A stretch of DNA of 64,000 nt from Vairimorpha necatrix (taxonomy: Eukaryota). This document shows, in pieces, positions 1 to 60,129 of the stretch. The first letter of the stretch is position 1. Each line of letters opens with the position of its first letter. Under the pieces are notes generated by a model. It worked only from the letters and a program-made list of their open reading frames with translations, had not been told where the DNA came from and did no database searches. Made by a program: the position numbers and the translations under genes. The stretch lies in contig CP142728.1 in NCBI GenBank assembly GCA_036630325.1, positions 558,001 to 622,000 of the forward strand, read 5' to 3'.

Positions 1-72
1 TTTGTGTGCTGTGTCGCAACAAAGAAGATTTTATGCCTGTTTTTAAACGCATTTAGGCCAGAAATAATGTTG

Positions 73-723
73 GGTACATGACCGTTTGGAACCCGCTTTG
101 GAAATGAACCCGCAATGAAATTTTAAAAGACCCCCCTTAAAAAATGGCAAAATTGGCAAAAACAATGTTTGTTGAAGCAGATGAGGTTTTTAGTGATGAA
201 ATGTATTCATACATGGAATATAAAGAAAAGATTATTTTGGAAACATTTGATGCTGAATCGGCGTGCGCCTTGCTCGTTTCTGTAAGTAGTAGAAATACTG
301 CTTTTTCCTTGAGGTAATACAAGAAAATGTATAACCTGTTTCTATTATGATCTCTAATCAATGGATAGCATATGATGCCACATTAGCTAAGCAAAGGGAT
401 GGAGCACAGTACTAAGAATCACTCCATAAATGCTATAACCTCTAGCGATTCCGAGTCACAACACCATATAATTTAGTTGGTTTTGGCTCATTTTATAAGA
501 GTTATTCGATCTTAACAAAAACAAAGAAGAACACTATGAGTGCCTTTTACAGTTTCACTGAGCTTTCCAAATTCTTAAAAATCACCGGAAAAATTGTCTT
601 CTGTCATTATTTAAAATAAATCGTTAAGTCCCTTTTTTATAATTTTTTTTTATTTTTCCCTTTTTTCGAATTTTTTCAATGCGGGTTCATTTTCCAAAAG
701 CGGGTTCCAAACGTACATGTACC
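73..723. mobile_element. Non-autonomous TIR DNA transposon (GG..CC termini, 8-bp TSD; Merlin-like)
   Basis: ~45-50-bp imperfect TIRs (GGTACATGACCGTTTGGAACCCGC... / ...GCGGGTTCCAAACGTACATGTACC). TSD TAATGTTG at 65-72 and 724-731. Single-copy empty site in the right arm near 59855-59865. Confidence 0.88.
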
Positions 724-1780
724 TAATGTTGGCTTATTTGTTTTTTCAACGTAGGTAAAGTACTTAGAGGATCATAAAAATAATATTTCTCTACATTTTA
801 GAGCAAATCTTTCAGGTAATTTAAAGACTAGACGAAGTAGAGCTAAATGCTTGTGTATTTGAAATTTCTGGATTATAAGCACGTGGCTAAACTTGTAAAA
901 GACAAAAAAATTAACCATTGTCACAAAATGCAGGCTTGATGACGAGTAGAAGCAACGCCGCAAATGAGATAAAGTTGGACTTATAAAGAGATCGAGGATT
1001 TTTATTAGGTCTATTATTATATACGCATCAAGTCATTTTGTTCGTATAGATATAAAGATACTTATTATTATGTATCAAGTCAAATTAATACGAAATGGGT
1101 TGCTATTTTTACCATTTAAAAGGTAAAAAATTTGACATGACAGATCTCGCGTCTCAGGCCTGTTATTTTTTGAAAGGCTTCTACTGCATTTTAAGAGGTT
1201 TTGAGTAAATTGATACGATTTTAATACATCAATACAATGTCTACCTAGTTCTCTCATGTTTTCGTAAGTTTGCTTATTTTAGCATTATAAAATAAACATA
1301 AAAACATCGAATAAGTTACAATATTGAAGTATGTGTTTAATATCTATTTGTAATATTTTTGAATTTAAAAACATTATTCTTATTTTTTAAATTAAGCCAG
1401 ACACATTGTAATCTTACAGCATAGATATTATGCCGAGGTGTTTTTTATGCTTATTCAATTATTTGATTGTCTTTTAAAATCGTACAATTTAGAATAAATC
1501 TTATTTTATTAAAAAAATTACATCTGTTAAATTATTTTACTAAGACTTATACAGCTTTTCAAGCCATTCTATTTTTTAAATTTGTTCGCCTAATAACTAC
1601 CAGAAAAGTTTCTTTATTTTATTAAAATTAATTTTAAAATATTAAGATATTTACTAAAAATAGTAAATGTTTTTTATTATTTTTTATTTATTTTACTTTA
1701 TGCTTAAATCGTTTGACTTTGTTTGTAAACAAACAAAATGCCAAAATTTTCTATTTAAGTAATTTTTCTTGCCCATAAAA

Positions 1781-3106
1781 ATGAAATTCGCTTTCTTCAT
1801 ACTGACATGTTTATGTGAAAGATCTGTTGTCTTAAATGTCGAAGACAAAAGACAATTTGATAATCTTAAAGTCAATTATGATAGTAATATTGAAAATGGT
1901 AAAGGACAAGGAATACTTGAAGATCTAAAAATTGATCTTTCTAATGAGGAAGACATGAAAAAATTCCAAACTATTATTTCAATTCCTGATGTACCAGAAG
2001 GTATGGGAGAGGTTTCTAAAGTCATAGAGACTTTTGAAACTGATGAGATAGAAGAAATGAAAAAAGGAGAAAGATTTTTTATAATTTTCTTTGTAGACGA
2101 AAAGACCGCTTTATTGCCTGCTGATCATTTTGATCGAACAATGAAAGTCTTTATTTCTTCAGATAAGAATCTTGCCAAGGAGATGAACACCCCTTATCCT
2201 GGTATTTATGGTTTTAATCCTAGAGACAAAGTCTCTTATCAATTTCCTCTAAATGAAGAAACTATTAAAACTATTGGCCCGATTGTTAGCGTAGATCTTA
2301 TTGGGACTTTATCCTATCAGAATCTTGAGTTGTATAAAGCTACAGGTTTACACTCCATGTATGTATTTATAAAACCAGAAGAGATGCAATCATTTTATAA
2401 AAATTATAAATCTGAAGCTTCTAAAGTTAAACATTTAGCAAAATTCTGCTTAATTCCCTATAGAGGCGATAAAGATCAATTGAGCGCATTTGGATTAACA
2501 GAAGAAGATTTACCAGGGATATTATTTATAAATGACGGGTTGAAATATCCACTTAAAAAGTGTTTTGAAAATAATATTCAGTCATTTATCCAAGATGTTT
2601 TAGATAAAAAGATCGAGCCAAAATATGCTTCACAAGATGAACCAGTAAACAATGATGAGTTAAATCTTAAAATCTTTACTAGAAACAATATTCCGAAATT
2701 TAGATCTGACAAGACTAAAGATAAATTAATAGTTTTTAGCTCTCCGAGTTGTAATTTCTGTATTCAGTTGAGACCAGTACTTGAAGAATTGGCCACTATT
2801 TCTCGAACTCATTTTGATAATAAAATCGTCATTGGAACATGTGACATTACAATGAATGACATTGATAATTTCGACATTTCCTCTGTACCTAAAATTTATC
2901 TCGTTAAGGCAGAGACCGATGAAGTTTTTGCATTTGATTCAAAAACAAGATCTGCCGACTCTATCGCCAAGTTTATAAAAACAAATGGATCATTTAATAT
3001 TGACATGTCTACATATTTGACCCAAGTAAATAATGAGACTAATAAAGTAGGCGAAATTAAAGACGAAAAACCTAACGACTCAGATAAAACTAACAGAGAA
3101 CTTTAA
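1781..3106 (+). CDS. Protein disulfide isomerase-like protein (left copy)
   Basis: Hydrophobic signal peptide, thioredoxin-like C-terminal domain with CNFC, PDI-like 'SQDEP' linker, and C-terminal NREL (KDEL-like). ATG 1781 follows a CCC motif. Confidence 0.8.
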   Translation: MKFAFFILTCLCERSVVLNVEDKRQFDNLKVNYDSNIENGKGQGILEDLKIDLSNEEDMKKFQTIISIPDVPEGMGEVSKVIETFETDEIEEMKKGERFFIIFFVDEKTALLPADHFDRTMKVFISSDKNLAKEMNTPYPGIYGFNPRDKVSYQFPLNEETIKTIGPIVSVDLIGTLSYQNLELYKATGLHSMYVFIKPEEMQSFYKNYKSEASKVKHLAKFCLIPYRGDKDQLSAFGLTEEDLPGILFINDGLKYPLKKCFENNIQSFIQDVLDKKIEPKYASQDEPVNNDELNLKIFTRNNIPKFRSDKTKDKLIVFSSPSCNFCIQLRPVLEELATISRTHFDNKIVIGTCDITMNDIDNFDISSVPKIYLVKAETDEVFAFDSKTRSADSIAKFIKTNGSFNIDMSTYLTQVNNETNKVGEIKDEKPNDSDKTNREL

Positions 3107-3252
3107 TTAAAAAATATTTTATAAATTATTTTGCACAAATTAATGAACGTTAAATTTTTTTTATAAAAAATAAATTTTCGTTCTGGTCAGTTAAATATTT
3201 TGATACAACATCTATGACACGTCATCAACAATGAAACTTATAAACAAAATTC

Positions 3253-3672
3253 ATGAATCATAAAGTAGAGATGTTAAAATCAATTTTTTTACTATTTTTA
3301 TTACTATGGTTATTATTTATGATTGGATTGACAATAACTGCCCCATTTTATGGTAGAAAAAAAAATCTTATAGATCAGATAAGAGCAAATCGATCTAATG
3401 CTGACAATAAATCCAGTGACAAGAATAATAAAGAAGAAGACGAATCTTCTAATGATAAAAATAAACAAGCAGACGAATCTTCTAATGATAAAAATAAACA
3501 AGCAGACGAATCTTCTATTAAAAAAAATAAACAAGCAGACGAATCTTATAAAAATAAACAAGAAGACGAATCTTATAAAAATAAACAAGCAGAAGAATCA
3601 ATAAATGACAACACAGAAGAAGAACCTCCTTTAATTATTGCATCACCAGAGAGTAAAAAATTATTTGAATAA
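3253..3672 (+). CDS. Hypothetical protein with N-terminal transmembrane helix and DESS/NKQA tandem repeats (left copy)
   Basis: 139-aa ORF conserved in the other arm, with a hydrophobic stretch followed by charged repeats. Confidence 0.7.
   Translation: MNHKVEMLKSIFLLFLLLWLLFMIGLTITAPFYGRKKNLIDQIRANRSNADNKSSDKNNKEEDESSNDKNKQADESSNDKNKQADESSIKKNKQADESYKNKQEDESYKNKQAEESINDNTEEEPPLIIASPESKKLFE
3439..3600 (+). repeat. Coding minisatellite of 33-bp and 27-bp units
   Basis: Three GACGAATCTTCT...AATAAACAAGCA-type 33-bp units followed by two 27-bp units. The right-arm copy has one fewer 33-bp unit. Confidence 0.9.
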
Positions 3673-3708
3673 AAAAAAATTTAACTTGAAAATTTTTTAG
3701 TTTATTTT

Positions 3709-4095
3709 TTATATGTACCTTTGAAATCCGTTTTCGTCTTCAACAAGTCTCTTTTTTTGTTTCTTTTTTGCTCCGCCAGAATTTACATAAATTTCAGCAT
3801 ATTCGACAATCTCTTCTTCAATTTCTTTGGGATCAGAGAAAAAACTTGAACTGGTAACTTCGCATTCTTTTATTTCTATAAAATCTATAGCATCATTAAT
3901 ATTTTCAAATTCGAATACGTACACGTAAACATCTCCGCATTTCTGTATTGAAATACATTTGGAATTATTTATTTTTAAAATCATTTTATATTCTAAACTA
4001 AATGTGACTAGATTTTCTTTTCGTTCTATATTTGTTTTAACTTTCAAAGAAGTATTAAATTCATTAATAAGAAATGGGAAATTTATTTTTAACAT
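3709..4095 (-). CDS. Hypothetical protein, possibly RRP7-like (left copy)
   Basis: ORF conserved in both arms. The C-terminal basic tract plus EDENGF resembles the RRP7 DEDGW/F motif (weak). Confidence 0.55.
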   Translation of the reverse strand: MLKINFPFLINEFNTSLKVKTNIERKENLVTFSLEYKMILKINNSKCISIQKCGDVYVYVFEFENINDAIDFIEIKECEVTSSSFFSDPKEIEEEIVEYAEIYVNSGGAKKKQKKRLVEDENGFQRYI

Positions 4096-4118
4096 AAAGA
4101 GGATAAAAAAATTTAATT

Positions 4119-4592
4119 TTAAAAACAATTTTTCTCATCAAATATTTTTTGACAATAATCATGTGCTTCTTCTCTACGGACTAAAAATTCACAAAATTTA
4201 CATTTTTTGTAAATTCCATCGGCTTCTAAAATTTTATTTTTAAAAATTACCAGAGCTCGTTTACTTAAAATGTACTTATTTTTTTCATCAATACTTAACC
4301 AATCATTTTCAACTAGTGAACTTAATAAATTCCCTTGTACTTCTTTATCAAATATTATTTTTTCGAATATCTCTATTATTTCTTTATTTTCCTCTTCATT
4401 GTACCCGAGAATAAGCTCTTGATTACCTCCAGTGCTAACAAGAATATAACAAGATTTATCATACCATTCAACTACATCAAAATGTATTTTACGTAAAATT
4501 GAAACAACTTCATTTAGATTTTTTATATTACTTTTATACATTCCCGTAGAAAGTAATTCATAAATAATGTTTTGCAATTCCTCTTCTTTCAT
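4119..4592 (-). CDS. NSE1-like SMC5/6 subunit, reduced (left copy)
   Basis: LVENDWL...Y.LSKRAL winged-helix-like motif followed by a partial RING (CKFC...H.YC). Confidence 0.55.
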   Translation of the reverse strand: MKEEELQNIIYELLSTGMYKSNIKNLNEVVSILRKIHFDVVEWYDKSCYILVSTGGNQELILGYNEEENKEIIEIFEKIIFDKEVQGNLLSSLVENDWLSIDEKNKYILSKRALVIFKNKILEADGIYKKCKFCEFLVRREEAHDYCQKIFDEKNCF

Positions 4593-4643
4593 AAAGGGAA
4601 TAAGATGAAAATTTTTAAATCTAAAAAAAATAAAAATTTTTAT

Positions 4644-5855
4644 TTATTTTTCACATGTCTTTAACTTTTTATAAACTCTAGACATAATTTCATCAGTTTT
4701 TTCTATTTGTTTGTCATTATCAAATGATTTAATTTTTTTCTTAACCACCTTTTTAATAGCTACCCCGTACGCATTAGTCCTGTTTACCGAAAAACAATCT
4801 ATTTTTGCTAAAATAGAAATTTTTGAAGCAAGAAATCTACAAAATTTCGCTTTATTTTTCATTTGTGTTTTTGATACCAATTTGGAATAAAATATTATTC
4901 CGTATTTCGGAGTATCTGATTTTGATTTAAGAGCTTGAAAAAGACTTTTTTCTGCTCCTAATAATTGAATTGTAGATGCTGTGGCTTTTGCTAAATTACA
5001 CAATCCGCCACATAAAACAATTAATTTAGCAGACATCATGTCTCCTAATAATTCGGTAAGATTTGGAGATATCGTCAACATTTTCTCTTTTAAATATTTT
5101 TTTAGACTATTTTTTATATTAATTTTTTCATTGATAATATCACATAAATTTTTTATATTTATCATATCAACTTCGTTGATTTTAATTCCTATTGAATTAT
5201 CTTTTAATTTTATTAATTCGTCAATCTTTTCATTTTTGATATTTTCATTTTTATTTTCAGTTGTAAAAAAAATTACTGCTGCAATGTATTCATCAATACT
5301 GTCACAAGCACAATATAATTCAGGAAAACTCCAACCATATAACTCTTTAATTCTCATAGAATAACTATTAATATCTTTTTCTAGTTGTTCTAACATGTTA
5401 ACTGTGTGTATCAAAATATTATCTTCTTTTTTACTGTTGTATTCAACTTTATTTCTTGAAAAAGTGTGAGCTACTCCTAAAATGAATTGAAGATCAATTT
5501 CAGACTTGAGAAATCGATGCTCATTAAATTTTATTCCTCTATAAATATTTATACTATTTTTTTGTTTAATTTTTATTTCTTTAAGTGCTTGTTTAAAAGA
5601 CGAATCACAATGTAAAATTTTTACATTATTAAGTTCTAGAAAGTTTTCTAATTCTTTTGGTAATTTATTATTGCAAAGCATTTGGATATTTTGAGTGGCC
5701 ATTTGTACATCTGCAAATTCAAACTTAGCTGTTAAATTAACAACTTGTGTTAGTTTCATATATTCTTGATATGATCCTTGAGATAAGTCTTCGTATTCAT
5801 TCATTTCGAATAATAAATATCCTTTGGGATGTTCGTACAAAACATGTTGCTTCAT
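4644..5855 (-). CDS. NOP56: Box C/D snoRNP protein NOP56 (left copy)
   Basis: N-terminal VLYEHPKGY, LEKDINSYSMRIKELYGWSFPEL, and Nop domain ASTIQLLGAEKSLF...TPKYG. Confidence 0.9.
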   Translation of the reverse strand: MKQHVLYEHPKGYLLFEMNEYEDLSQGSYQEYMKLTQVVNLTAKFEFADVQMATQNIQMLCNNKLPKELENFLELNNVKILHCDSSFKQALKEIKIKQKNSINIYRGIKFNEHRFLKSEIDLQFILGVAHTFSRNKVEYNSKKEDNILIHTVNMLEQLEKDINSYSMRIKELYGWSFPELYCACDSIDEYIAAVIFFTTENKNENIKNEKIDELIKLKDNSIGIKINEVDMINIKNLCDIINEKINIKNSLKKYLKEKMLTISPNLTELLGDMMSAKLIVLCGGLCNLAKATASTIQLLGAEKSLFQALKSKSDTPKYGIIFYSKLVSKTQMKNKAKFCRFLASKISILAKIDCFSVNRTNAYGVAIKKVVKKKIKSFDNDKQIEKTDEIMSRVYKKLKTCEK

Positions 5856-5915
5856 TTAAAAGGGGAACTAAATGAAAAAAATAACGGTATTATTTTTAAG
5901 AAATATTTTAAACCC
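5856..5915. promoter_or_regulatory. 60-bp bidirectional promoter region between NOP56 and SUA5
   Basis: Divergent ATGs at 5855 (-) and 5916 (+). Each is preceded on its own strand by a CCC motif (GGGG 5862-5865; CCC 5913-5915), around an AT-rich core. Confidence 0.65.
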
Positions 5916-6905
5916 ATGAAAATTCTATCAATTGAAAATTTAGATATTAATAAAATACTTCATTATTTTGAAAAAGATGTAGTTGTTATACCAACAGAAA
6001 CCGTCTATGGATTAGCAGCCGCAATAAACAATGAAAATGCTTTAAAAAATATTTATAAATTAAAACGTCGTCCTTCGGATAATCCACTTATAGTGCATGT
6101 TTCTTCTATTGAGATGTTAAAAACAGTCATTGAGGGAGAAATACCTAAAGTCTATGAAAAAATAATAGAAAACTTTTGGCCTGGCCCAATATCATTGCTT
6201 TTTAAAGCCAATAAAAATGTTTCTCGTACAGTCACAGCTGGACTAGATACAATTTTAGTAAGAATGCCAGACAATAAAATTATTTTGGAAATTATCGAAA
6301 AACTCAACATTCCTTTAGCTGCACCTTCAGCAAATCTTAGTGGAAAACCAAGTCCTTCGTGCGTCCACCACACTATTGATGATTTTGGTGAAGAATGTCC
6401 TCTTTATTTAGATGGCGGGGAATGTAGAGTCGGCCTAGAGTCGACGGTTTTTACCTATTTAAATAGTCCTGCGATACTCAGACCGGGTGGAATTTGCATT
6501 GAAGTTTTAGAAAAACTAATAGGTGAAAAAATCAATATAAATTATTCCGTTAAAAAGATAGAAAATCAACAAATCTGCCCAGGTCAAAAATATAAACATT
6601 ATAGTCCAAATAATAAATTTGTTTTGATAATTAGTGATTCAGTTAATATTGAAGAATTAGTTAAAGAGTATAAAAAAGTAGGGATATTAACACACTACGA
6701 TTTTAAACCAAAAATGAAAAGAGAACAAGATTGTGAAATTATTTATTTAGGCAATAAACCATACGAAGTGGCTATGAATTTATTTAAGGGGTTACGAAAG
6801 CTAGACGAGACATGTGATATTATAATAACAAAAGGCGTTTCTATAGAAATGGAAGGAGAAGCGATTATGGACAGAGTGAAAAAGGCTGCACATATGATAA
6901 TATAA
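5916..6905 (+). CDS. SUA5: Threonylcarbamoyl-AMP synthase (left copy)
   Basis: PTETVYGLAA, KRRPSDNPLIVHV, FWPGP, AAPSANLSGKPSP, GLESTV, and PGQKYKHYSP plus a Sua5 C-terminal domain. CCC-ATG start at 5916. Confidence 0.95.
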   Translation: MKILSIENLDINKILHYFEKDVVVIPTETVYGLAAAINNENALKNIYKLKRRPSDNPLIVHVSSIEMLKTVIEGEIPKVYEKIIENFWPGPISLLFKANKNVSRTVTAGLDTILVRMPDNKIILEIIEKLNIPLAAPSANLSGKPSPSCVHHTIDDFGEECPLYLDGGECRVGLESTVFTYLNSPAILRPGGICIEVLEKLIGEKININYSVKKIENQQICPGQKYKHYSPNNKFVLIISDSVNIEELVKEYKKVGILTHYDFKPKMKREQDCEIIYLGNKPYEVAMNLFKGLRKLDETCDIIITKGVSIEMEGEAIMDRVKKAAHMII

Positions 6906-6967
6906 AAATAAAATTTTTACAATCTTTATTTATTTTGTTTTTGTTTGGACAAGAGACAAAATTTAAG

Positions 6968-7829
6968 GGCTAATTTTCACTTTATCCCCCCCTTACCAAT
7001 ATAAATACAGAATTTTTTATTTTTAGCCCTGTTTTTCAAAAGTCGAAGCGTCCAGAGCGGAAAGGAACAGAGAAAAATTTACATAAGTAAAAAAATGGTC
7101 TTATAAATATCTAATTTGAACATAATTTATAAAAAATATATTATTTAAACCAATTTAATAATGTTTTCTAATAAACTATGAGTTAAATAGAAGTCTAAAT
7201 TTGTAAAAATATGTTTTAACCTATTGCTTTCTTTTGTCATTACATTTAATTTTTGCCAAAGATAAACATGTTTATACACAGTTTATGTTGTTTAAAACAG
7301 ATTCTAGGTTAGGTTATTCTTAGTTTGGTAGTATATTTATTAGTCTTGTTTTTTAGGTTTTTATTGGTTTTTCTAGACAAACAAAGTAAAAATAATGTTA
7401 TATTTATGCTCTTTTAAGAATTATTGAATCGCATAGAATGTCAATTTAATAAGATATGTTATATTTTAGCTCCAAAAGTAAAACATTACATGTTTGGGAA
7501 ATTCTTTAATTCTTGAAAAATATTCATTTATAACAGCAAATGAACCTTATAAATATTATTTATATAGAGATTTCGTTGTTATACATTGCAATGTACAATA
7601 AAGATAAATCTTGATCAATAATTGGAAGAAGGAAACTTTTAAAAAATTGAAAAAAAAAAAACGAAAAAACAATTGTTTTATTTTTGGTAAATATGCTATT
7701 TTATTACAACTTTATTTTTTTGACTTTTGCTCCTTCACATTTTTTCCGCTTCGAATTTCGAAAAAAAGGGATATTTTTTAAAAATTCTCAATTTATATTG
7801 GTAAGGGGGGGATAAAGTGAAAATGCTCC
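6968..7829. mobile_element. Non-autonomous Merlin-family element inserted in the 3' end of RAD2
   Basis: TIRs GGCTAATTTTCACTTTATCCCCCCC... / ...GGGGGGGATAAAGTGAAAATGCTCC resemble the ends of the Merlin at 61993-63307. TSD AAATTTAAG at 6959-6967 and 7830-7838. Empty site at ~53651-53659. Confidence 0.9.
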
Positions 7830-9363
7830 AAATTTAAGTTCATCGATTTTCTCTTTATCTATCCCTTTGTTTACAAAAAATTGCACTATTTTTTCAAATT
7901 CTAATGTTTTAAATTTTGGTCTCCAGTCTTCCCTAATAGGACAATTCAAATAAATATTTCGATATGATTGTATATCTATATTTTTGAAATTTTCAGATTT
8001 AATATATTTTTCTGCATTTTTAATCCCTATACCTTTTATTCCAACTGTGTAATCTGAACCCAATACAAAACCCAAATCAATAATATCAAAAGTAGACAAT
8101 CCTTTGACTTCTTCTATTCTTTTCGGATCATAGCGTAAAATATTTTTATTTTTACGAAAAAAATTCTTATATACAACACCTCCGTGTAAAAGAATGTCAT
8201 TATCTTCTGTGATAACTCCGTCGATAACACCGGCTCTATAAAGAAATCCACATTCGGCGTCAGATTCAGAAGGAGAATCCAAATATGGCAAATTGAATGC
8301 ATTTATAATTTCTTTAATTATAGACAAAACATTTAAAAAATCCATTGGTTCATTTAAATTAGAATCGATTTTAGAAATTTTTATTGTTTTTCCTTGTGAA
8401 AAATCGTAATTTATTTCATTTGTCTCATTGTCTGCTTCGTAATTATTTTCTTCAGCAAAGAAACCTTCACTAAATTTTTCATTTTTAGTTTTACAAATGG
8501 CTACAATTTCATCTGAAAAATCATTTTTAATTTTTTTTATCGGGATTACATAATTATCATCTATATTTCGATGTGAAATTGTCTCATCTATTTCTAAAAA
8601 ATCATTAATATCCCCATCAGAACTATTTTCATTTCTCATTGGTATCGTTTTTTTGTTAGTTTTTAAAAAAAAACTTTTATTACAATCGGAATTGATTTTT
8701 TTTTTGTTTTTCTGTTTCTAGTTTTTAAATATAAAAACTCACTAAATTTCTGTTTTTAACATTTTTTATTTGCAACTTTGAAAAATCTGTCATTGATTTT
8801 TTATCAATATTAAATCGTTGTTTTCTACGTTCTCTCATTTTTACGAGCATTTTTAATTTCTGCGAATTTGAATATTTTTTTGAATCTAAAAATTTTAAAA
8901 TATTTTCCGTATTATAAAAATCAGAATCAGTTGATATTTTTTTAATTTCTTGCTTCTCCTCTTTAATATTTTTTCCCCATTCATGAAGTCCCTTTAAAGT
9001 GTCTTCTTCAAATTCGTCTTTGATCAATCCGCCGTGTATACACATTCTTATTTTAATCTTGCATTTTTTGCATATTTCGTTATTTATAATATCTTTAACC
9101 AATTTATCCAAGTTTTCCTTTTTTCTTTCTTCTATTACTTTACGTTTTAAAAGATTTGGTGCGCCGTCAAAAATAAATACTGGTCTTATTTCGTGATACA
9201 ACAATTTTATAATTTTTTTTGATACGTAGTAGATTACTTCAGTTTCTGGCATTCCTTTATATTGATGTATCCATATACTTGTATCTATAGCCAGAGTGGT
9301 GTTTTGGGGCGTATGTTTTTCAGCACAGTTACTTATAAGTTTCCATAGCCCTTTTACACCCAT
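7788..9363 (-). pseudogene. RAD2: RAD2/XPG nuclease, disrupted left copy
   Basis: Compared with the intact copy at 52127-53692: ATA AAA became ATT TAA (stop at 8725-8727), a +1 in the T run at 8696-8705 (T10 vs A9), and the C-terminus is replaced by TIR-encoded residues. Confidence 0.85.
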
Positions 9364-9612
9364 AGGGGGGTAGTATTATTTTTTATTTTTTAGCAAATTA
9401 ATTTTTTTTTGATTTATTGGTTTAATAAGAATGGATGGTTAAATTACAAAAATTTTAATACAATTGATATTTTTTTGATAAATTAATTTAATTTCTACCC
9501 AGAGTTAAATTTTTAAAATCAATACAAAAAAAAATGATCATACATATTACAAGTAAAAATAATATTTATTATATAATTGTTTGATAACATTTAAATACTA
9601 AAAAAAAATTGT

Positions 9613-11174: not shown

Positions 11175-11887
11175 CTAACTTTGGGGTAACAATATATGTT
11201 TTTTTTTTAGTAATATTGAAAAATTCACTTTATATTTTGTAAAAATTAATATGTCAAATATGCCCCTTAACCTACTATTCTTTTTACTTTAGCTTTATTA
11301 ATTATGTACAATGTCAAAAGTCCAAGAAATAACAAAAAAATTACATTGCATGCGACACATGCAAATCAATGGCGATAACAATATCATTATAGAATAGAAA
11401 CCATTCGTAAACTTATTTCTCGTTTTTCTGTAACCTCAAATAATTTATTTAATATATTATTTAAAAAAAGCCATTAAGAAACAAGCATGTATATAAATTT
11501 AATAAATTTTAACTACTTAGATCAAGTCTCAAGCCTGATAATAACATTGCTTAATTTTCATAGAAGTCAATTATTTTTATATTTATAAATTTCAATATAT
11601 TCTTAAAGTATATTATTTAATTAGTACTAATCAACGAACCAATTTTTACATATTTTAAAAAATTTAGATATGTATGTATTTTATAAAATTAAACTCCTAT
11701 GTCTTGAGAAAATCATTGTTGCACTATATAGCGTTCTAATTTATGTAAAAAAACATTAATATTTATTTATTAGTTTGGTTTTCTACTAATATATGCTCAT
11801 TATAGTTTAAGAATCACAAAAGTTCGGAACAATAAAAAAAAACTTCATAAATAGCTGCAAGTGTTTTCAACTAACAATATAATTTAA

Positions 11888-47364: not shown

Positions 47365-47458
47365 GGGTATAAAAAACAATAATTTATAATAACAATGTAA
47401 ACATTCTCAAATAAAAAAATTCATTTAAAAATAATTAATATCGTTTTTAATTTATTTT

Positions 47459-48685: not shown

Positions 48686-48715
48686 TTTTTATGGGATAAA
48701 AAAAAACATAACATT

Positions 48716-51883: not shown

Positions 51884-52126
51884 ACAATTTTTTTTAGTAT
51901 TTAAATGTTATCAAACAATTATATAATAAATATTATTTTTACTTGTAATATGTATGATCATTTTTTTTTGTATTGATTTTAAAAATTTAACTCTGGTTAG
52001 AAATTAAATTAATCAATCAAAAAATATCAATTACACTAAAATTTGTAATTTAACCATACATTCTTATTAAACCAATAAATCAAAAAAAATTAATTTGCTA
52101 AAAAAAAAAAAATAATACTACCCCCT

Positions 52127-53692
52127 ATGGGTGTAAAAGGGCTATGGAAACTTATAAGTAACTGTGCTGAAGAACATACGCCTCACAACACCACTCTGGC
52201 TCTTGATACAAGTATATGGATACATCAATATAAAGGAATGCCAGAAACTGAAGTAATCTACTACGTATCAAAAAAAATTATAAAATTGTTGTATCACGAA
52301 ATAAGACCAGTATTTATTTTTGACGGCGCACCAAATCCTTTAAAACGTAAAGTAATAGAAGAAAGAAAAAAGGAAAACTTGGATAAATTAGTTAAAGATA
52401 TTATAAATAACGAAATATGCAAAAAATGCAAGATTAAAATAAGAATGTGTATACATGGCGGATTGATCAAAGACGAATTTGAAGAAGGCACTTTAAAGGG
52501 ACTTCATGAATGGGGAAAAAATATTAAAGAGGAGAAGCAAGAAAATAAAAAAATATCAACTGATTCTGATTTTTATAATACGGAAAATATCTTAAAATTT
52601 TTAGATTTAAAAAAATATTCAAATTCGCAGAAATTAAAAATGCTCGTAAAAATGAGAGAACGTAGAAAACAACGATTTAATATTGATAAAAAATCAATGA
52701 CAGATTTTTCAAAGTTGCAAATAAAAAATGTTAAAAACAGAAATTTAGTGAGTTTTTATATAAAAAAACTAGAAACAGAAAAACAAAAAAAAATCAATTC
52801 CGATTGTAATAAAAGTTTTTTTTTAAAAACTAATAAAAAAACGATACCAATGAGAAATGAAAATAGTTCTGATGGGGATATTAATGATTTTTTAGAAATA
52901 GATGAGACAAATTCACATCGAAATATAGATGATAATTATGTAATCCCGATAAAAAAAATTAAAAACGATTTTTCAGATGAAATTGTAGCCATTTGTAAAA
53001 CTAAAAATGAAAAATTTAGTGAAGGTTTCTTTGCTGAAGAAAATAATTACGAAGCAGACAATGAGACAAATGAAATAAATTACGATTTTTCACAAGGAAA
53101 AACAATAAAAATTTCTAAAATCGATTCTAATTTAAATGAACCAATGGATTTTTTAAATGTTTTGTCTATAATAAAAGAAATTATAAATGCATTCAATTTG
53201 CCATATTTGGATTCTCCTTCTGAATCTGACGCTGAATGTGGGTTTCTTTATAGAGCTGGTGTTATCGACGGAGTTATCACAGAAGATAATGACATTCTTT
53301 TACACGGAGGTGTTGTATATAAGAATTTTTTTCGTAAAAATAAAAATATTTTACGCTATGATCCGAAAAGAATAGAAGAAGTCAAAGGATTGTCTACTTT
53401 TGATCTTATTGATTTGGGATTTGTATTGGGTTCAGATTACACAGTTGGAATAAAAGGTATAGGAATTAAAAATGCAGAAAAATATATTAAATCTGAAAAT
53501 TTCAAAAATATAGATATACAATCATATCGAAATATTTATTTGAATTGTCCTATTAGGGAAGACTGGAGACCAAAATTTAAAACATTAGAATTTGAAAAAA
53601 TAGTGCAATTTTTTGTAAACAAAGGAATAGATAAAGAGAAAATCGATGAGCTTAAATTTTATCTCTTATCCAAACAAAAACAAAATGTTTAA
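52127..53692 (+). CDS. RAD2: RAD2/XPG-family structure-specific endonuclease (intact)
   Basis: XPG-N (MGVKGLW, LDTSIW, PVFIFDG), a spacer, and XPG-I/H3TH (ESDAECG, TEDNDILLHG, GSDYTVGIKGIG). Confidence 0.9.
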   Translation: MGVKGLWKLISNCAEEHTPHNTTLALDTSIWIHQYKGMPETEVIYYVSKKIIKLLYHEIRPVFIFDGAPNPLKRKVIEERKKENLDKLVKDIINNEICKKCKIKIRMCIHGGLIKDEFEEGTLKGLHEWGKNIKEEKQENKKISTDSDFYNTENILKFLDLKKYSNSQKLKMLVKMRERRKQRFNIDKKSMTDFSKLQIKNVKNRNLVSFYIKKLETEKQKKINSDCNKSFFLKTNKKTIPMRNENSSDGDINDFLEIDETNSHRNIDDNYVIPIKKIKNDFSDEIVAICKTKNEKFSEGFFAEENNYEADNETNEINYDFSQGKTIKISKIDSNLNEPMDFLNVLSIIKEIINAFNLPYLDSPSESDAECGFLYRAGVIDGVITEDNDILLHGGVVYKNFFRKNKNILRYDPKRIEEVKGLSTFDLIDLGFVLGSDYTVGIKGIGIKNAEKYIKSENFKNIDIQSYRNIYLNCPIREDWRPKFKTLEFEKIVQFFVNKGIDKEKIDELKFYLLSKQKQNV

Positions 53693-53712
53693 AGATTGTA
53701 AAAATTTTATTT

Positions 53713-54702
53713 TTATATTATCATATGTGCAGCCTTTTTCACTCTGTCCATAATCGCTTCTCCTTCCATTTCTATAGAAACTCCTTTTGTTATTATAATA
53801 TCACATGTCTCGTCTAGCTTTCGTAACCCCTTAAATAAATTCATAGCTACCTCGTATGGTTTATTGCCTAAATAAATAGTTTCACAATCTTGTTCTCTTT
53901 TTATTTTTGGTTTAAAATCGTAGTGTGTTAATATCCCTACTTTTTTATACTCTTTAACTAATTCTTCAATATTAACTGAATCACTAATTATCAAAACAAA
54001 TTTATTATTTGGACTATAATGTTTATATTTTTGACCTGGGCAGATTTGTTGATTTCCTATCTTTTTAACGGAATAATTTATATTGATTTTTTCACCTATT
54101 AGTTTTTCTAAAACTTCAATGCAAATTCCACCCGGTCTGAGTATCGCAGGACTATCTAAATAGGTAAAAACCGTCGACTCTAGACCGACTCTACATTCGC
54201 CGCCATCTAAATAAAGAGGACATTCTTCACCAAAATCATCAATAGTGTGTTGGACGCACGAAGGACTTGGTTTTCCACTGAGATTTGCTGAAGGTGCAGC
54301 TAAAGGAATGTTGAGTTTTTCAATAATTTCCAAAATAACTTTATTGTCTGGCATTCTTACTAAAATTGTATCTAGTCCAGCTGTGACTGTACGAGAAACA
54401 TTTTTATTGGCTTTAAAAAGCAGTGATATTGGGCCAGGCCAAAAGTTTTCTATTATTTTTTCATAGACTTTAGGTATTTCTCCCTCAATGACTGTTTTTA
54501 ACATCTCAATAGAAGAAACATGCACTATAAGTGGATTATCCGAAGGACGACGTTTTAATTTATAAATATTTTTTAAAGCATTTTCATTGTTTATTGCGGC
54601 TGCTAATCCATAGACGGTTTCTGTTGGTATAACAACTACGTCCTTTTCAAAATAATGAAGTATTTTATTAATATCTAAATTTTCAATTGATAGAATTTTC
54701 AT
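53713..54702 (-). CDS. SUA5: Threonylcarbamoyl-AMP synthase (right copy)
   Basis: As the left copy. Confidence 0.95.
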   Translation of the reverse strand: MKILSIENLDINKILHYFEKDVVVIPTETVYGLAAAINNENALKNIYKLKRRPSDNPLIVHVSSIEMLKTVIEGEIPKVYEKIIENFWPGPISLLFKANKNVSRTVTAGLDTILVRMPDNKVILEIIEKLNIPLAAPSANLSGKPSPSCVQHTIDDFGEECPLYLDGGECRVGLESTVFTYLDSPAILRPGGICIEVLEKLIGEKININYSVKKIGNQQICPGQKYKHYSPNNKFVLIISDSVNIEELVKEYKKVGILTHYDFKPKIKREQDCETIYLGNKPYEVAMNLFKGLRKLDETCDIIITKGVSIEMEGEAIMDRVKKAAHMII

Positions 54703-54762
54703 GGGTTTAAAATATTTCTTAAAAATAATACCGTTATTTTTTTCATTTAGTTCCCCTCTTAA

Positions 54763-55974
54763 ATGAAGCAACATTTTTTGTACGAACATCCCAAAGGATA
54801 TTTATTATTCGAAATGAATGAATACGAAGACTTATCTCAAGGATCATATCAAGAATATATGAAACTAACACAAGTTGTGAATTTAACAGCTAAGTTTGAA
54901 TTTGCAGATGTACAAATGGCCACTCAAAATATCCAAATTCTTTGCAATAATAAATTACCAAAAGAATTAGAAAACTTTCTAGAACTTAATAATGTAAAAA
55001 TTTTACATTGTGATTCGTCTTTAAAACAAGCACTTAAAGAAATAAAAATTAAACAAAAAAATAGTATAAATATTTATAGAGGAATAAAATATAATGAGCA
55101 TCGATTTCATAAGTCTGAAATTGATCTTCAATTCATTTTAGGAGTAGCTCACACTTTTTCAAGAAATAAAGTCGAATACAACAGTAAAAAAGAAGATAAT
55201 ATTTTGATACACACAGTTAACATGTTAGAACAACTAGAAAAAGATATTAATAGTTATTCTATGAGAATTAAAGAGTTATTTGGTTGGAGTTTTCCTGAAT
55301 TATATTGTGCTTGTGACAGTATTGATGAATACATTGCAGCAGTAATTTTTTTTACAACTGAAAATAAAAATGAAAATATTAAAAATGAAAAGATTGACGA
55401 ATTAATAAAATTAAAAGATAATTCAATAGGAATTAAAATCAACGAAGTTGATATGATAAATATAAAAAATTTATGTGATATTATCAATGAAAAAATTAAT
55501 ATAAAAAATAGTCTAAAAAAATATTTAAAAGAGAAAATGTTGACGATATCTCCAAATCTTACTGAATTATTAGGAGACATGATGTCTGCTAAATTAATTG
55601 TTTTATGTGGCGGATTGTGTAATTTAGCAAAAGCCACAGCATCTACAATTCAATTATTAGGAGCAGAAAAAAGTCTTTTTCAAGCTCTTAAATCAAAATC
55701 AGATACTCCGAAATACGGAATAATCTTTTATTCTAAATTGGTATCAAAAACACAAATGAAAAATAAAGCGAAATTTTGTAGATTTCTTGCTTCAAAAATT
55801 TCTATTTTAGCAAAAATTGATTGTTTCTCGGTAAACAGGACTAATGCGTACGGAGTAGCTATAAAAAAGGTGGTTAAGAAAAAAATTAAATCATTTGATA
55901 ATGACAAACAAATAGAAAAAACTGATGAAATCATGTCGAGAGTTTATAAAAAGTTAAAGACATGTGAAAAATAA
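54763..55974 (+). CDS. NOP56: NOP56 (right copy)
   Basis: As the left copy. Confidence 0.9.
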   Translation: MKQHFLYEHPKGYLLFEMNEYEDLSQGSYQEYMKLTQVVNLTAKFEFADVQMATQNIQILCNNKLPKELENFLELNNVKILHCDSSLKQALKEIKIKQKNSINIYRGIKYNEHRFHKSEIDLQFILGVAHTFSRNKVEYNSKKEDNILIHTVNMLEQLEKDINSYSMRIKELFGWSFPELYCACDSIDEYIAAVIFFTTENKNENIKNEKIDELIKLKDNSIGIKINEVDMINIKNLCDIINEKINIKNSLKKYLKEKMLTISPNLTELLGDMMSAKLIVLCGGLCNLAKATASTIQLLGAEKSLFQALKSKSDTPKYGIIFYSKLVSKTQMKNKAKFCRFLASKISILAKIDCFSVNRTNAYGVAIKKVVKKKIKSFDNDKQIEKTDEIMSRVYKKLKTCEK

Positions 55975-56024
55975 ATAAAAAATTTTATTTTTTTAGATTT
56001 AAAAATTTTCATCTTATTCCCTTT

Positions 56025-56504
56025 ATGAAAGAAGAGGAATTGCAAAACATTATTTATGAGTTACTTTCTACGGGAATGTATAAAAGTAATATAAAAAATC
56101 TAAATGAAGTTGTTTCAATTTTACGTAAAATACATTTTGATGTAGTTGAATGGTATGATAAATCTTGTTATATTCTTGTTAGCACTGGAGGTAATCAAGA
56201 GCTTATTCTCGGGTACAATGAAGAGGAAAATAAAGAAATAATAGAGATATTCGAAAAAATAATATTTGATAAAGAAGTACAAGGGAATTTATTAAGTTTA
56301 CTAGTTGAAAATGATTGGTTAAGTATTGATGAAAATAATAAGTACATTTTGGGTAAACGGGCTTTAGTAATTTTTAAAAATAAAATTTTAGAAGCCGATG
56401 GAATTTACAAAAAATGTAAATTTTGTGAATTTTTAGTCCGTAGAGAAGAAGCACATGATTATTGTCAAAAAATATTTGATGAGAAAAATTGTCTTTTAAA
56501 TTAA
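56025..56504 (+). CDS. NSE1-like protein (right copy)
   Basis: As the left copy, but ends NCLLN rather than NCF. Confidence 0.55.
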   Translation: MKEEELQNIIYELLSTGMYKSNIKNLNEVVSILRKIHFDVVEWYDKSCYILVSTGGNQELILGYNEEENKEIIEIFEKIIFDKEVQGNLLSLLVENDWLSIDENNKYILGKRALVIFKNKILEADGIYKKCKFCEFLVRREEAHDYCQKIFDEKNCLLN

Positions 56505-56521
56505 ATTTTTTTATCCTCTTT

Positions 56522-56908
56522 ATGTTAAAAATAAATTTCCCATTTCTTATTAATGAATTTAATACTTCTTTGAAAGTTAAAACAAATTTAGAACGAAAAG
56601 AAAATCTAGTCACATTTAGTTTAGAATATAAAATGATTATAAAAATAAATAATTCCAAATGTATTTCAATACAGAAATGCGGAGATGTTTACGTGTACGT
56701 ATTCGAATTTGAAAAAATTAATGATGCTATAGATTTTATAGAAATAAAAGAATGCGAAGTTACCAGTTCAAGTTTTTTCTCTGATCCCAAAGAAATTGAA
56801 CAAGAGAATGTCGAATATGCTGAAATTTATGTAAATTCTGGTGGAGCAAAAAAGAAACAAAAAAAGAGACTTGTTGAAGACGAAAACGGATTTCAAAGGT
56901 ACATATAA
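56522..56908 (+). CDS. Hypothetical protein, possibly RRP7-like (right copy)
   Basis: As the left copy. Confidence 0.55.
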   Translation: MLKINFPFLINEFNTSLKVKTNLERKENLVTFSLEYKMIIKINNSKCISIQKCGDVYVYVFEFEKINDAIDFIEIKECEVTSSSFFSDPKEIEQENVEYAEIYVNSGGAKKKQKKRLVEDENGFQRYI

Positions 56909-56943
56909 AAAACAAACTAAAAAATTTTCAAGTTAAATTTTTT

Positions 56944-57333
56944 TTATTCAAATAATTTTTTACTCTCTGGTGATGCAATAATTAAAGGAGGTTCTTCTTC
57001 TGTGTTGTCATTTTTTGATTCTTCTGCTTGTTTATTTTTATAAGATTCGTCTGCTTGTTTATTTTTATTAGATTCGTCTTCTTGTTTATTTTTTTTACTA
57101 GAAGATTCGTCTGCTTGTTTATTTTTATCATTAAAAGATTCGTCTTCTTCTTCTTTATTATTCTTGTCACTGGATTTATTGTCAGCATTAGATCGATTTG
57201 CTCTTATCTGATCTATAAGATTTTTTTTTCTACCATAAAATGGGACAGTTATTGTCAATCCAATCATAAATAATAACCATAGTAATAAAAATAGTAAAAA
57301 AATCGATTTTAACATCTCCACTTTATGATTCAT
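56944..57333 (-). CDS. Membrane-anchored repeat protein (right copy, 129 aa)
   Basis: As the left copy, with a different repeat number. Confidence 0.7.
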   Translation of the reverse strand: MNHKVEMLKSIFLLFLLLWLLFMIGLTITVPFYGRKKNLIDQIRANRSNADNKSSDKNNKEEEDESFNDKNKQADESSSKKNKQEDESNKNKQADESYKNKQAEESKNDNTEEEPPLIIASPESKKLFE

Positions 57334-57479
57334 AAATTTTGTTTATAAGTTTCATTGTTGATGACGTGTCATAGATGTTGTATCAAAATATTTAACTGAC
57401 CAGAACGAAAATTTATTTTTTATAAAAAAAATTTAACGTTCATTAATTTGTGCAAAATAATTTTTAAAATATTTTTTAA

Positions 57480-58805
57480 TTAAAGTTCTCTGTTTGTTTT
57501 ATCTGAGTCGGAAGGTTTTTCGTCTTTAATTTCGCCTACTTTATTAGTCTCATTATTTACTTGGGTCAAATATGTAGACATGTCAATATTAAATGATCCA
57601 TTTATTTTTATAAACTCGGCGATAGAATCGGCAGATCTTGTTTTTGAATCAAATGCAAAAACTTCATCGGTCTCTGCCTTAACGAGATAGATTTTAGGTA
57701 CAGAGGAAATGTCGAAATTATCAATGTCATTCATTGTAATGTCACATGTTCCAATGACGATTTTATTATCAAAATGAGTTCGAGAAATAGTGGCCAATTC
57801 TTCAAGTACTGGTCTCAACTGAATACAAAAATTACAACTCGGAGAGCTAAAAACTATTAATTTATCTTTAGTCTTGTCAGCTCTAAATTTCGGAATATTG
57901 TTTCTAGTAAAGATTTTAAGATTTAACTCATCATTGTTTACTGGTTCATCTTGTGAAGCATATTTTGGCTCGATCTTTTTATCTAAAACATCTTGAATAA
58001 ATGACTGAATATTATTTTCAAAACACTTTTTAAGTGGATATTTCAACCCGTCATTTATAAATAATATTCCTGGTAAATCTTCTTCTGTTAATCCAAATGC
58101 GCTCAATTGATCTTTATCGCCCCTATAGGAAATTAAGCAGAATTTTGCTAAATGTTTAACTTTAGAAGCTTCAGATTTATAATTTTTATCAAATGATTGC
58201 ATCTCTTCTGGTTTTATAAATACATAAATGGAGTGTAACCCTGTAGCTTTATACAACTCAAGATTCTGATAGGATAAAGTCCCAATAAGATCTACGCCAA
58301 CAATTGGGACGATAGTTTTAATAGTTTCTTCATTTAGAGGAAATTGATAAGAGACTTTGTCTCTAGGATTAAAACCATAAATACCAGGATAAGGGGTGTT
58401 CATCTCCTTGGCAAGATTCTTATCTGAAGAAATAAAGACTTTCATTGTTCGATCAAAATGATCAGCAGGCAATAAAGCAGTCTTTTCGTCTACAAAGAAA
58501 ATTATAAAAAATCTTTCTCCTTTTTTCATTTCTTCTATCTCATCAGTTTCAAAAGTCTCTATGACTTTAGAAACCTCTCCCATACCTTCTGGTACATCAG
58601 GAATTGAAATAATAGTTTGGAATTTTTTCATGTCTTCCTCATTAGAAAGATCAATTTTTAGATCTTCTAGTATTCCTTGTCCTTTACCATTTTCAATATT
58701 ACTATCATAATTGACTTTAAGATTATCAAATTGTCTTTTGTCTTCGACATTTAAGACAACTGATCTCTCACATAAACATGTCAGTATGAAGAAAACAAAA
58801 TTCAT
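57480..58805 (-). CDS. PDI-like protein (right copy)
   Basis: As the left copy, with about a dozen substitutions. Confidence 0.8.
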   Translation of the reverse strand: MNFVFFILTCLCERSVVLNVEDKRQFDNLKVNYDSNIENGKGQGILEDLKIDLSNEEDMKKFQTIISIPDVPEGMGEVSKVIETFETDEIEEMKKGERFFIIFFVDEKTALLPADHFDRTMKVFISSDKNLAKEMNTPYPGIYGFNPRDKVSYQFPLNEETIKTIVPIVGVDLIGTLSYQNLELYKATGLHSIYVFIKPEEMQSFDKNYKSEASKVKHLAKFCLISYRGDKDQLSAFGLTEEDLPGILFINDGLKYPLKKCFENNIQSFIQDVLDKKIEPKYASQDEPVNNDELNLKIFTRNNIPKFRADKTKDKLIVFSSPSCNFCIQLRPVLEELATISRTHFDNKIVIGTCDITMNDIDNFDISSVPKIYLVKAETDEVFAFDSKTRSADSIAEFIKINGSFNIDMSTYLTQVNNETNKVGEIKDEKPSDSDKTNREL

Positions 58806-60129
58806 TTTTATGGGCAAGAAAAATTACTTAAATAGAAAATTTTAACATTTTGTTTGTTTACAAACAAAGTCAAACGATTTAAGCATAAAGTAAAATAAAA
58901 AAAAACAAAAAAAAACATTTACTATTTTAGGTAAATATCTTAATATTTTAAAATTAATTTTAATAAAATAAAGAAACTTTTCTGGTAGTTATTGGGCGAA
59001 CAAATTTAAAAAATAGAGACGCTTTTAATAAGCTGTATAAGTCTTAGTAAAGTAATTTAACAGATGTAATTTTTTTAATAAAATAAGATTTATTCTAAAT
59101 TGTACGATTTTTAAAAAACAATCTTATAATTGAATAAGCATAAAAAACACCTCGGCATAATATCTATGCTGTAAGATTACAAATGTGTCTGGCTTAATTT
59201 AATAAATAAGAATAATGTTTTTAAATTCAAAAATATTACAAATAGATATTAAACACATACTTCAATATTGTAACTTATTCGATGTTTTTATGTTTATTTT
59301 ATAATGCTAAAATAAGCAAACTTACGAAATCATGAGAGAGTTAGGTAGACATTGTATTGATATACTAAAATCGTATCAATTTGCTTAAAACCTCCGGCTA
59401 AAGTAAGCATTAGCTACAAAAAATAACAGGCTTGAGACGCGAGATCTGCCTCGTCAAATTTTTTACCATTTAAATGGTAAAAATAGCAACCCATTTCGTA
59501 TTAATTTGACTTGATACATAATAATAAGTATCTTTATATCTATACGAACAAAATGACTTGATGCGTATATAATAATAGACCTAATAAAAATTCTCGATCA
59601 ACCTATAAGTCCAACTTTATCTCCTTTGCGGCGTTGCTCCTACTCGTCATCAAGCCTGCATTTTGTGACAATCGTTAATTTTTTTGTCTTTTACAAGTTA
59701 GCCACGTGCTTATAATCCAGAAATTTCAAATACACAAGCATTTAGCTCTACTTCGTCTAGTCTCTTAATTACCTGAAAGATTTGCTCTAAAATGTAGAGA
59801 AATATTTTTTTTATGATCCTCTAAGTACTTTACCTACGATGAAAAAATAAATAAGCCAACATTATTTCTGGCCTAAAATGCGTAAAAAACGGGCTTAAAA
59901 TCTTCTTTGTTGCGACACAGCACACAAATTTGATGAGTTAACTAAAAAAATATGTTTAAAGATTTCAAAATTTTCGAATAATTAAAATTATAACCCAAAT
60001 AATAATATATAGTATTTCTTCGGAATCTAACTCGGTTCTTTATGTATCAACACAAAGCTTTCGACCACTAAGCTACATTTTCATATAATTTTACAATGTT
60101 TTAGAATATTTTGGAATTTTATCCCTTAG

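Follow-up and report, generated by a model that had tools for sequence, protein, structure and literature searches.

A large gene-bearing palindrome in Vairimorpha necatrix, probably an inverted segmental duplication in the interior of chromosome 3

Vairimorpha necatrix is an insect parasite of the microsporidia. Here, we describe a large palindrome in a stretch of 64,000 nucleotides (nt) of its genome (assembly GCA_036630325.1, contig CP142728.1, positions 558,001 to 622,000 of the forward strand; henceforth the window, with coordinates counted from its first letter). Two co-linear inverted arms with 14 gene pairs inside the window face each other across a unique spacer, and the published gene table continues the mirrored gene order on both sides before different single-copy genes follow. 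With a probability of about 0.8, we regard the structure as a real segmental duplication in inverted orientation that lies in the interior of chromosome 3, near its middle. The bounded arms and their different single-copy flanks suggest that both arms lie on one molecule.

Large gene-bearing palindromes with gene conversion are textbook features of mammalian sex chromosomes. In microsporidia, segmental duplications have been reported as abundant in Nosema bombycis (PMC3614468) and as frequent and well tolerated, above all in polyploids (bioRxiv 10.1101/2025.05.12.652816). The published genome description of V. necatrix (PMC10759460) reports a diplokaryotic, tetraploid organism with four pseudo-haplotypes of 12 chromosomes that are 96% identical, assembled with hifiasm from 28 Gb of PacBio HiFi reads (N50 13.7 kb) into contigs that were polished with Flye and are reported as telomere-to-telomere. 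A preliminary description of the window, made from the sequence letters, had guessed a polyploid or diplokaryotic microsporidian and was correct in this. A search of the full-text literature on microsporidia and V. necatrix found no earlier description of the duplication; the available text of PMC10759460 mentions duplication three times, in no case at this locus, and its available supplementary figures contain neither a haplotype dot plot nor any mention of duplication.

Architecture of the palindrome

A repeat search returned 26 inverted repeat pairs in the window, nearly all the long ones tiling a single co-linear inverted repeat. Alignment of the window with itself by blastn gave the following inverted blocks:

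1-73 with 59928-59856, 93.2% identity
724-6986 with 59864-53630, 96.9% identity
7830-11888 with 53659-49610, 97.9% identity
15105-15310 with 49616-49411, 95.7% identity
15538-22078 with 49424-42876, 99.2% identity

Three parts of the window can be distinguished:

1..22062 (+), left arm: 14 genes and four private insertions; cut by the window start and continuing upstream
22063..42891 (no strand), spacer: 20,829 bp, unique, mostly transposon sequence, not palindromic
42892..59928 (-), right arm: 17,037 bp; within the window, an inverted copy of the left arm

Aligned over 17,123 bases, the arms show 272 substitutions and 27 small indels (1.6% divergence overall), and the resemblance is therefore explained neither by chance nor by a perfect fold-back of reads. 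The left arm measures 22,062 bp against 17,037 bp on the right because it contains about 4.96 kb of private insertions. Since homology extends to base 1, this arm is truncated by the window edge; past 59928, homology presumably continues, with its partner sequence located before base 1. Direct alignment of the inner ends revealed that arm homology stops abruptly, after a T-run, between 22062 and 22063 on the left and between 42891 and 42892 on the right. From there, the two junctions open into different spacer ends that lack inverted homology to each other: no inverted repeat pair links them, and all that emerged from their comparison were AT-rich matches 30-40 nt long and 70-77% alike. Within 22063-42891, the only inverted matches are two Ty3 copies that are 70-77% alike. 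The locus combines two features of a large palindrome, namely co-linear inverted arms of high identity and a unique, unduplicated spacer.

The preliminary description had proposed a block of ~17 kb present twice in inverted orientation, ~21 kb apart, with inner junctions at ~22062 and ~42891, a spacer filled with transposable elements, and copies too different in substitutions and private insertions for a simple fold-back. Each of these points holds. Its estimate of ~60 kb for the whole palindrome proved too short, as the published gene table adds about six pairs outward on each side.

Genes shared by the arms

The 14 gene pairs in the window comprise 13 pairs of open reading frames (ORFs) of at least 100 amino acids (aa) in the standard code, plus TFB5:

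Left 1781..3106 (+), right 57480..58805 (-): protein disulfide isomerase (PDI), 441 aa each
Left 3253..3672 (+), 139 aa; right 56944-57333 (-), 129 aa: repeat-rich small membrane protein
Left 3709..4095 (-), 128 aa; right 56522-56908 (+): DUF5093 protein
Left 4119..4592 (-), 157 aa; right 56025-56504 (+), 159 aa: NSE1-like protein
Left 4644..5855 (-), right 54763..55974 (+): NOP56, 403 aa each
Left 5829..6905 (+), 358 aa; right 53713-54789 (-): SUA5 (threonylcarbamoyl-AMP synthase)
Left 7788..9363 (-), split into 212 + 283 aa; right 52127..53692 (+), intact, 521 aa: RAD2/XPG
Left 9613..11174 (-), split into 324 + 131 aa; right 50321..51883 (+), intact, 520 aa: hypothetical protein, VNE69_03174-like
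Left 16042..16239 (+), right 48716-48913 (-): TFB5, 65 aa, proteins identical (Pfam Tfb5, E = 2.4e-14)
Left 16270..17495 (+), split into 159 + 230 aa; right 47459..48685 (-), intact, 408 aa: NOG2
Left 17590..18144 (+), 184 aa; right 46810-47364 (-): EF-hand calcium sensor (NCS1-like)
Left 18312..19283 (+), 323 aa; right 45672-46643 (-): WD40 protein, identical coding sequence
Left 19939..20664 (-), 241 aa; right 44290-45015 (+): lineage-specific family member A
Left 21021..21782 (-), 253 aa; right 43172-43933 (+): lineage-specific family member B

Both the count of 14 duplicated genes and the names NOP56, NOG2, SUA5, TFB5 and RAD2 from the preliminary description hold. The best named relative of NOP56 belongs to V. 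ceranae (72% identity), and the two small membrane proteins differ by a 30-nt repeat unit at 3441. Seven of ten window proteins had exact matches in the protein collection, all on one contig; the exact sequences of the other three were not found there. The TFB5 pair lacks an entry in the published gene table, in which VNE69_03174 is followed straight by NOG2 (VNE69_03175), and looks like a small gene missed by the published annotation.

Two further members of the lineage-specific family lie in the spacer:

41861..42574 (+): family member C, 237 aa, single-copy, just inside the right junction
23695..24380 (+): pseudogene D, a degenerate member of the A/B/C family, in the same orientation as C, B' and A' on the right

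Members A, B, C and pseudogene D share 34-40% identity and are positioned exactly at the inner ends of the palindrome. For member B, no relatives beyond its own cluster turned up in a word-based search. Four of the five A/B/C family entries in the table of PMC10759460 carry a predicted signal peptide.

Extent beyond the window

The mirrored order does not end with the window. Beyond the aligned part of the right arm, the window contains one more relevant gene:

60130..61884 (+): cullin, 584 aa; published VNE69_03195

As the preliminary description envisaged, a second cullin (WUR02951.1) lies on the same 1,467,808-bp contig just upstream of base 1, with 561 of 584 residues identical (96%). It corresponds to VNE69_03166 in the published table, directly before PDI (VNE69_03167). 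With its partner in this position, the window cullin is therefore part of the continuation of the right arm. Further out, the published gene table mirrors VNE69_03161-03179 against 03201-03182, giving about 19 gene pairs in total. The outermost pair, 03161/03201, codes for an uncharacterised protein with predicted local distance difference test (pLDDT) values of 79.9 and 79.7. Between it and the cullin, the pairs outside the window are cysteinyl-tRNA synthetase (CysRS; 03162 and 03200), one membrane transporter-like and one hypothetical protein, and a second uncharacterised protein. One hypothetical entry on the right side, 03197, is unpaired.

Different genes follow on the two sides. In the published table, the left flank past 03161 consists of transposon genes, PCH2-like, EME1, PSB2 and La, and the right flank past 03201 of NUF2, YIF1, VID27 and others. 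The annotation sheet has one entry each for EME1, PCH2-like, NUF2 and VID27 and two for CysRS. By the annotation table, the outer ends are thus bounded by non-duplicated genes, with both outer junctions located outside the window. Row numbers in the table place the centre of the palindrome near locus 180 of ~380 on chromosome 3, a count that takes 03166 as row 873 and 04125 as row 1212 and assumes unbroken numbering. In view of this mid-chromosome position in locus-tag order, a subtelomeric duplication was rejected.

A step in identity next to the spacer

Divergence between the arms is unevenly distributed. Substitutions amount to 2.31% in 1-16000, 0.65% in 16001-18000 and 0.10% in 18001-22062. 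The innermost interval contains 4 differences, compared with 93.6 expected at the outer rate (Poisson P = 7e-35), and the near-identical stretch ends exactly at the spacer. At the other extreme, intergenic divergence in 501-1500 reaches 4.6%. Coding sequences follow the same course: the proportion of synonymous differences (pS) is 0.045-0.058 for PDI, NOP56 and SUA5, 0.031 for NCS1 and 0-0.007 for WD40, A and B. Over the eight pairs that are intact in both arms, pS is 0.032, the corresponding nonsynonymous value (pN) 0.006 and pN/pS 0.20, which suggests that both copies have been under purifying selection after duplication.

Private insertions, decay and expression of the copies

Four large private insertions were found, all in the left arm. 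All four have a target-site duplication, and the corresponding site on the right is empty:

74..723: miniature inverted-repeat transposable element (MITE), 650 bp, with terminal inverted repeats and a 9-bp target-site duplication TAATGTTGG
6968..7829: MITE, 862 bp, with a 9-bp target-site duplication AAATTTAAG
11889..15104 (+): Ty3/gypsy-like element, 3.2 kb, with identical 51-nt terminal direct repeats and a target-site duplication of ~7 bp
15311..15537: insertion of unclassified kind, 227 bp, with target-site duplication ATTATAT (7 bp)

The ORF of the Ty3/gypsy-like element is broken into 403 + 511 aa. We read all four as transposon insertions, and the large differences between the arms as biological.

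Two further sequencing runs, X1 and X2, were compared as Logan contigs over window positions 2600-22599, which include the left inner junction. X2 resembles low-depth DNA, and X1 resembles RNA in its highly uneven depth and its loose ends of poly-A; the depths given below are per-contig word depths summed over all contigs and are not copy numbers. In the last bin, 21943-22599, X2 depth was reduced and X1 cover absent, from which we conclude nothing. Empty-site joints occur in these runs at 6958 to 7830 and at 15297 to 15538 (both in X2 and X1) and at 11881 to 15105 (X1 only). Forty of 253 variant rows were listed for the two runs. After 22 rows within private insertions had been set aside, 18 positions in arm sequence were left, 11 of which show the right-arm letter and seven the letter of neither arm; further alleles therefore exist. 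Left and right forms coexist at 3671 (X2), 8696 (X1) and 16719 (X1).

Broken reading frames are confined to one side, with three of the 14 left copies affected and none of the 14 right copies. Left RAD2 is interrupted by an extra T in a 9-T run at 8696, left NOG2 by a missing A at 16720 and the left VNE69_03174-like gene by a missing T at 10204. At 8696, the right form accounts for a depth of 829.7 of 5401.3 in X1, where the left form is also present, and X2 has no cover. At the NOG2 break, the right form reaches 8944.4 of 25785.3 in X1 and 0 of 4.67 in X2, and the left form occurs in both. Since the left forms of RAD2 and NOG2 are found in the runs, two of the frameshifts are backed by further data. 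At 10204, only the right form was seen (139.4 of 139.4 in X1, 6.73 of 6.73 in X2), and this frameshift could reflect either a rare allele or an error in the consensus. Published gene models pass over the breaks. Aligned to the intact 521-aa right copy, the 514-aa model of left RAD2 shows a gap of 10 residues where the frame shifts, and NOG2 is represented by models of 396 aa and 271 aa beside the intact 408 aa. These models look like artificial introns or splits across pseudogene-like breaks.

Spore RNA counts in the table of PMC10759460 indicate transcription of both copies for several genes. Left and right counts are 37401 and 17561 for PDI, 222494 and 32390 for NOP56, 2598 and 1562 for SUA5, 197408 and 62931 for RAD2, 12885 and 43383 for NOG2, 144 and 320 for NCS1, and 1930 and 1990 for the cullin. 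Copies differ up to about 7-fold in a direction that varies between genes, NOP56 being higher on the left and NOG2 on the right; these counts may depend on how multi-mapping reads were handled. For the WD40 pair, one entry is blank and the other is 10 (PMC10759460), as expected if multi-mapping reads were discarded.

Duplication or assembly artefact

In the preliminary description, the structure was either a genuine duplication of a segment in inverted orientation or the product of an assembler that had joined two haplotypes. The bounded arms, two distinct junctions and unique spacer favour the former. Several points nevertheless weigh against it. Arm divergence is near the 4% between pseudo-haplotypes, so that divergence alone cannot separate paralogues from alleles, and because a diploid-mode assembler was applied to a tetraploid, with contigs representing pseudo-haplotypes, haplotype switches are possible. 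Logan contigs of X1 and X2 can neither phase variants nor give copy number. The extension outward from the cullins and the single-copy state of the flanks come from annotation names and pLDDT values rather than from sequence. Consensus error may account for part of the decay, given that neither run showed the left form at 10204 and that the break at 8696 falls within nine consecutive T. Finally, the inner junctions show no short inverted repeat or microhomology beyond the T-run.

An artefact would mean that the arms are alleles of different haplotypes, placed on one contig by a pseudo-haplotype switch or a mis-join. The setting is conducive to this, with a tetraploid genome, diploid-mode assembly and pseudo-haplotypes that are 96% identical, a divergence of similar order to that of the arms. 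Haplotypes, too, differ by private transposon insertions and frameshifts, and arm linkage is seen in contigs rather than in one spanning molecule. A haplotype fold-back would, however, mirror the sequence to the contig end. Here, mirroring is limited to 03161-03179/03201-03182 with 20.8 kb of unique spacer in between, the symmetry stops on both sides, and different single-copy genes follow. Because the inner junctions enter non-homologous spacer ends, there is no allelic continuation for more than 10 kb on each side, which also speaks against joined alleles. Arm-specific variants are located within ~4-6 kb of each junction, a distance well covered by reads with the reported N50 of 13.7 kb. What remains of the artefact is a switch inside the spacer between haplotypes that carry the ~40-kb block on opposite sides, and such an arrangement would itself be most simply explained by a palindromic ancestor. 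We therefore consider an artefact highly improbable. The locus does resemble haplotig mis-joins in being an inverted near-duplicate with haplotype-level divergence on one contig of a polyploid, but differs from them in its different single-copy flanks, unique spacer and position in the middle of a telomere-to-telomere contig. A heterozygous inversion misread as a palindrome was rejected, since one and the same arm-spacer junction would then recur, and the locus has two distinct ones.

Possible homogenisation of the inner arms and proposed origin of the duplication

Taking the palindrome as a real duplication, we lean slightly towards arm-to-arm gene conversion as the cause of the near-identity next to the spacer, with the inner 4-6 kb recently re-homogenised. 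Boundaries of plastid inverted repeats ebb and flow, and a comparable stepwise growth might have moved the repeat boundary into the spacer and copied WD40, A and B across recently. A stepwise drop in divergence towards the spacer, with its minimum right at the junction, is what such growth would leave behind. The shared orientation of C, B', A' and pseudogene D likewise fits an original tandem array D..C-B-A from which B and A alone were copied across. Conversion tracts that stop at the repeat boundary yield the same pattern, though, and the identity step was measured between the two arms of one haplotype only, where boundary migration and conversion give the same picture. The middle step of 0.65% at 16-18 kb would moreover require a second expansion, and no footprint of an older junction was seen near 16 or 18 kb. 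On balance, growth of the repeat appears the less likely of the two, and our preference for conversion is slight. More tentatively, the palindrome could be actively homogenising itself, with conversion starting at the spacer boundary and spreading outward. If so, the eight arms per cell would report on intrachromosomal versus inter-haplotype recombination in a tetraploid, diplokaryotic organism for which the sexual cycle and recombination remain debated. The spacer might also flip between two orientations; that the locus is a centromere-like inverted-repeat structure is speculation.

For the formation of the arms, a single inverted-duplication event would have copied ~40 kb head-to-head. As the most economical explanation, we give even odds to replication or repair with two switches, of the fold-back or template-switch type; two are needed because both flanks were kept while the inverted copy was inserted. 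The locus lacks hallmarks of a simple fold-back: there is neither a short inverted repeat or microhomology at the turning point nor a spacer between some bases and a few kb long, although the spacer may have been short before the transposons arrived, and different single-copy genes on both sides argue against loss of the distal chromosome. Much of the spacer consists of later insertions, so the original spacer was probably shorter. The arms would then have diverged to ~5% at synonymous sites with both copies under purifying selection (pN/pS 0.2) and transcribed, transposons would have filled the spacer and struck the left arm four times, and two or three left genes (RAD2, NOG2 and perhaps the 03174-like gene) would have been frameshifted, as expected of a redundant copy. 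Last, the 4-6 kb adjoining the spacer would have been made alike again. A metagenome scan with NOG2 returned 80 loci, the best of them 56% identical, and yielded no close microsporidian contig; V. ceranae NOG2 falls in the same 90% cluster as NOG2 of the window. As the ancestral order was not obtained from relatives, the mechanism stays a best guess.

The age of the structure depends on how the outer divergence is read. At ~5%, neutral divergence in the outer arms is at least as large as the 4% between haplotypes, so that either the duplication predates haplotype coalescence or one arm was copied from another haplotype. In the former case, the duplication should occur in all four haplotypes. 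In the latter, the second arm would have been copied during inter-homologue repair, with the arms several percent apart from the outset and the structure itself young. Such a hybrid origin would account for the match of the outer pS values and of the intergenic 4.6% with the 4% reported between haplotypes, and a pN/pS of 0.2 suits divergence gathered in functional alleles. Recombination among all four genomes has also been proposed for tetraploid microsporidia (bioRxiv 10.1101/2025.05.12.652816). Yet the differences are unpolarised, and an old duplication within the chromosome, with selection acting on both copies, would also account for these numbers. The seven of 18 listed variants that match neither arm represent further alleles that are unplaced relative to the arms. 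We consider a hybrid origin unlikely and prefer divergence of the arms after an intrachromosomal duplication.

Comparison with known systems

Like the mammalian sex-chromosome palindromes (human Y P1-P8 and X-chromosome palindromes; PMC8600007, PMC3723533, PMC8981503), the V. necatrix locus has long inverted arms with expressed genes around a unique spacer, and part of the arms is near-identical (99.9% over the inner 4 kb, where conversion is our slightly preferred interpretation). Unlike in these palindromes, which are described as >99% identical along whole arms, most of the arm length here is ~97.7% identical. The genes are housekeeping rather than testis genes, the chromosome is an ordinary one of a tetraploid parasite, and one arm is decaying. 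With the duplications described for N. bombycis and in 'Forty new genomes', the locus shares a multi-gene block within a chromosome of the Nosema/Vairimorpha group. Those duplications are reported preferentially near contig or chromosome ends, in contrast to the interstitial position found here, and the available accounts of them do not describe inverted, spacer-separated palindromes or identity gradients. Fold-back inverted duplications that arise after double-strand breaks in yeast and cancer (PMC10622511) resemble the locus in their head-to-head block and offer a plausible route of formation; classical fold-backs have a tiny spacer derived from a small inverted repeat, and their distal part is lost or replaced, whereas here the spacer spans 20.8 kb and both flanks are kept.

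The palindrome provides a second copy of about 19 genes on one chromosome despite microsporidian genome reduction, and these include normally single-copy essential genes, namely cysteinyl-tRNA synthetase, NOP56, NOG2, SUA5 and TFB5. If the duplication is real, users of the V. necatrix reference should treat the gene pairs as paralogues on the same chromosome and not as residual haplotigs, expect frameshifted left copies to be bridged by artificial gaps in gene models, and allow for ambiguous read mapping in the identical inner 4 kb. The locus would offer a clean, dated case in which a duplicated block was bombarded by transposons, decayed on one side and was locally re-homogenised, and it could serve to measure recombination in a tetraploid parasite.

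Transposons of the spacer and further observations

The spacer and the right end of the window contain the following transposon sequences:

24929..28091 (-): Ty3/gypsy-like element of the spacer in degraded form; several short ORFs; terminal repeats of 49 nt, 98% alike
29110..32295 (+): intact Ty3/gypsy-like element in the spacer, with a 1024-aa ORF at 29144-32218 and 51-nt terminal repeats that are 100% alike
33121..33522 (-): IS1595/ISXO2-like DDE transposase fragment in the spacer
37914..38558 (-): MULE transposase remnant in the spacer, below the Pfam cut-off; published as VNE69_03180, MULE domain protein
61999-63308: DNA transposon of the IS1595/ISXO2-like kind; inverted ends ~110 nt long; DDE ORF of 275 aa at 62099-62926 (-)

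The Ty3/gypsy-like elements are very compact (3.2 kb), and their terminal direct repeats of 49-51 nt contain the start codon of the ORF. In the intact 1024-aa ORF, Pfam recognises reverse transcriptase, RNase H and integrase but no protease domain; a zinc-knuckle match was obtained only in the left-arm element at 11889-15104. Possible terminal inverted repeats of the MULE remnant are located at 37031-37061 and 40484-40514. The exact sequence of the 275-aa IS1595-like DDE protein was not found in the protein collection. The ends of the 862-bp MITE (6968-7829) resemble those of the IS1595-like element at 61999-63308, of which the MITE is a non-autonomous relative. A tRNA scan and an Rfam scan of the window gave 0 matches each.

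Two contigs of X1 join distant parts of the left arm. One, with a depth of 49.7, connects 15300 to 19856 on opposite strands, and another connects 19730 to 4729 with 34 letters in between; both may be chimeric RNA contigs or stem from another, rearranged allele.

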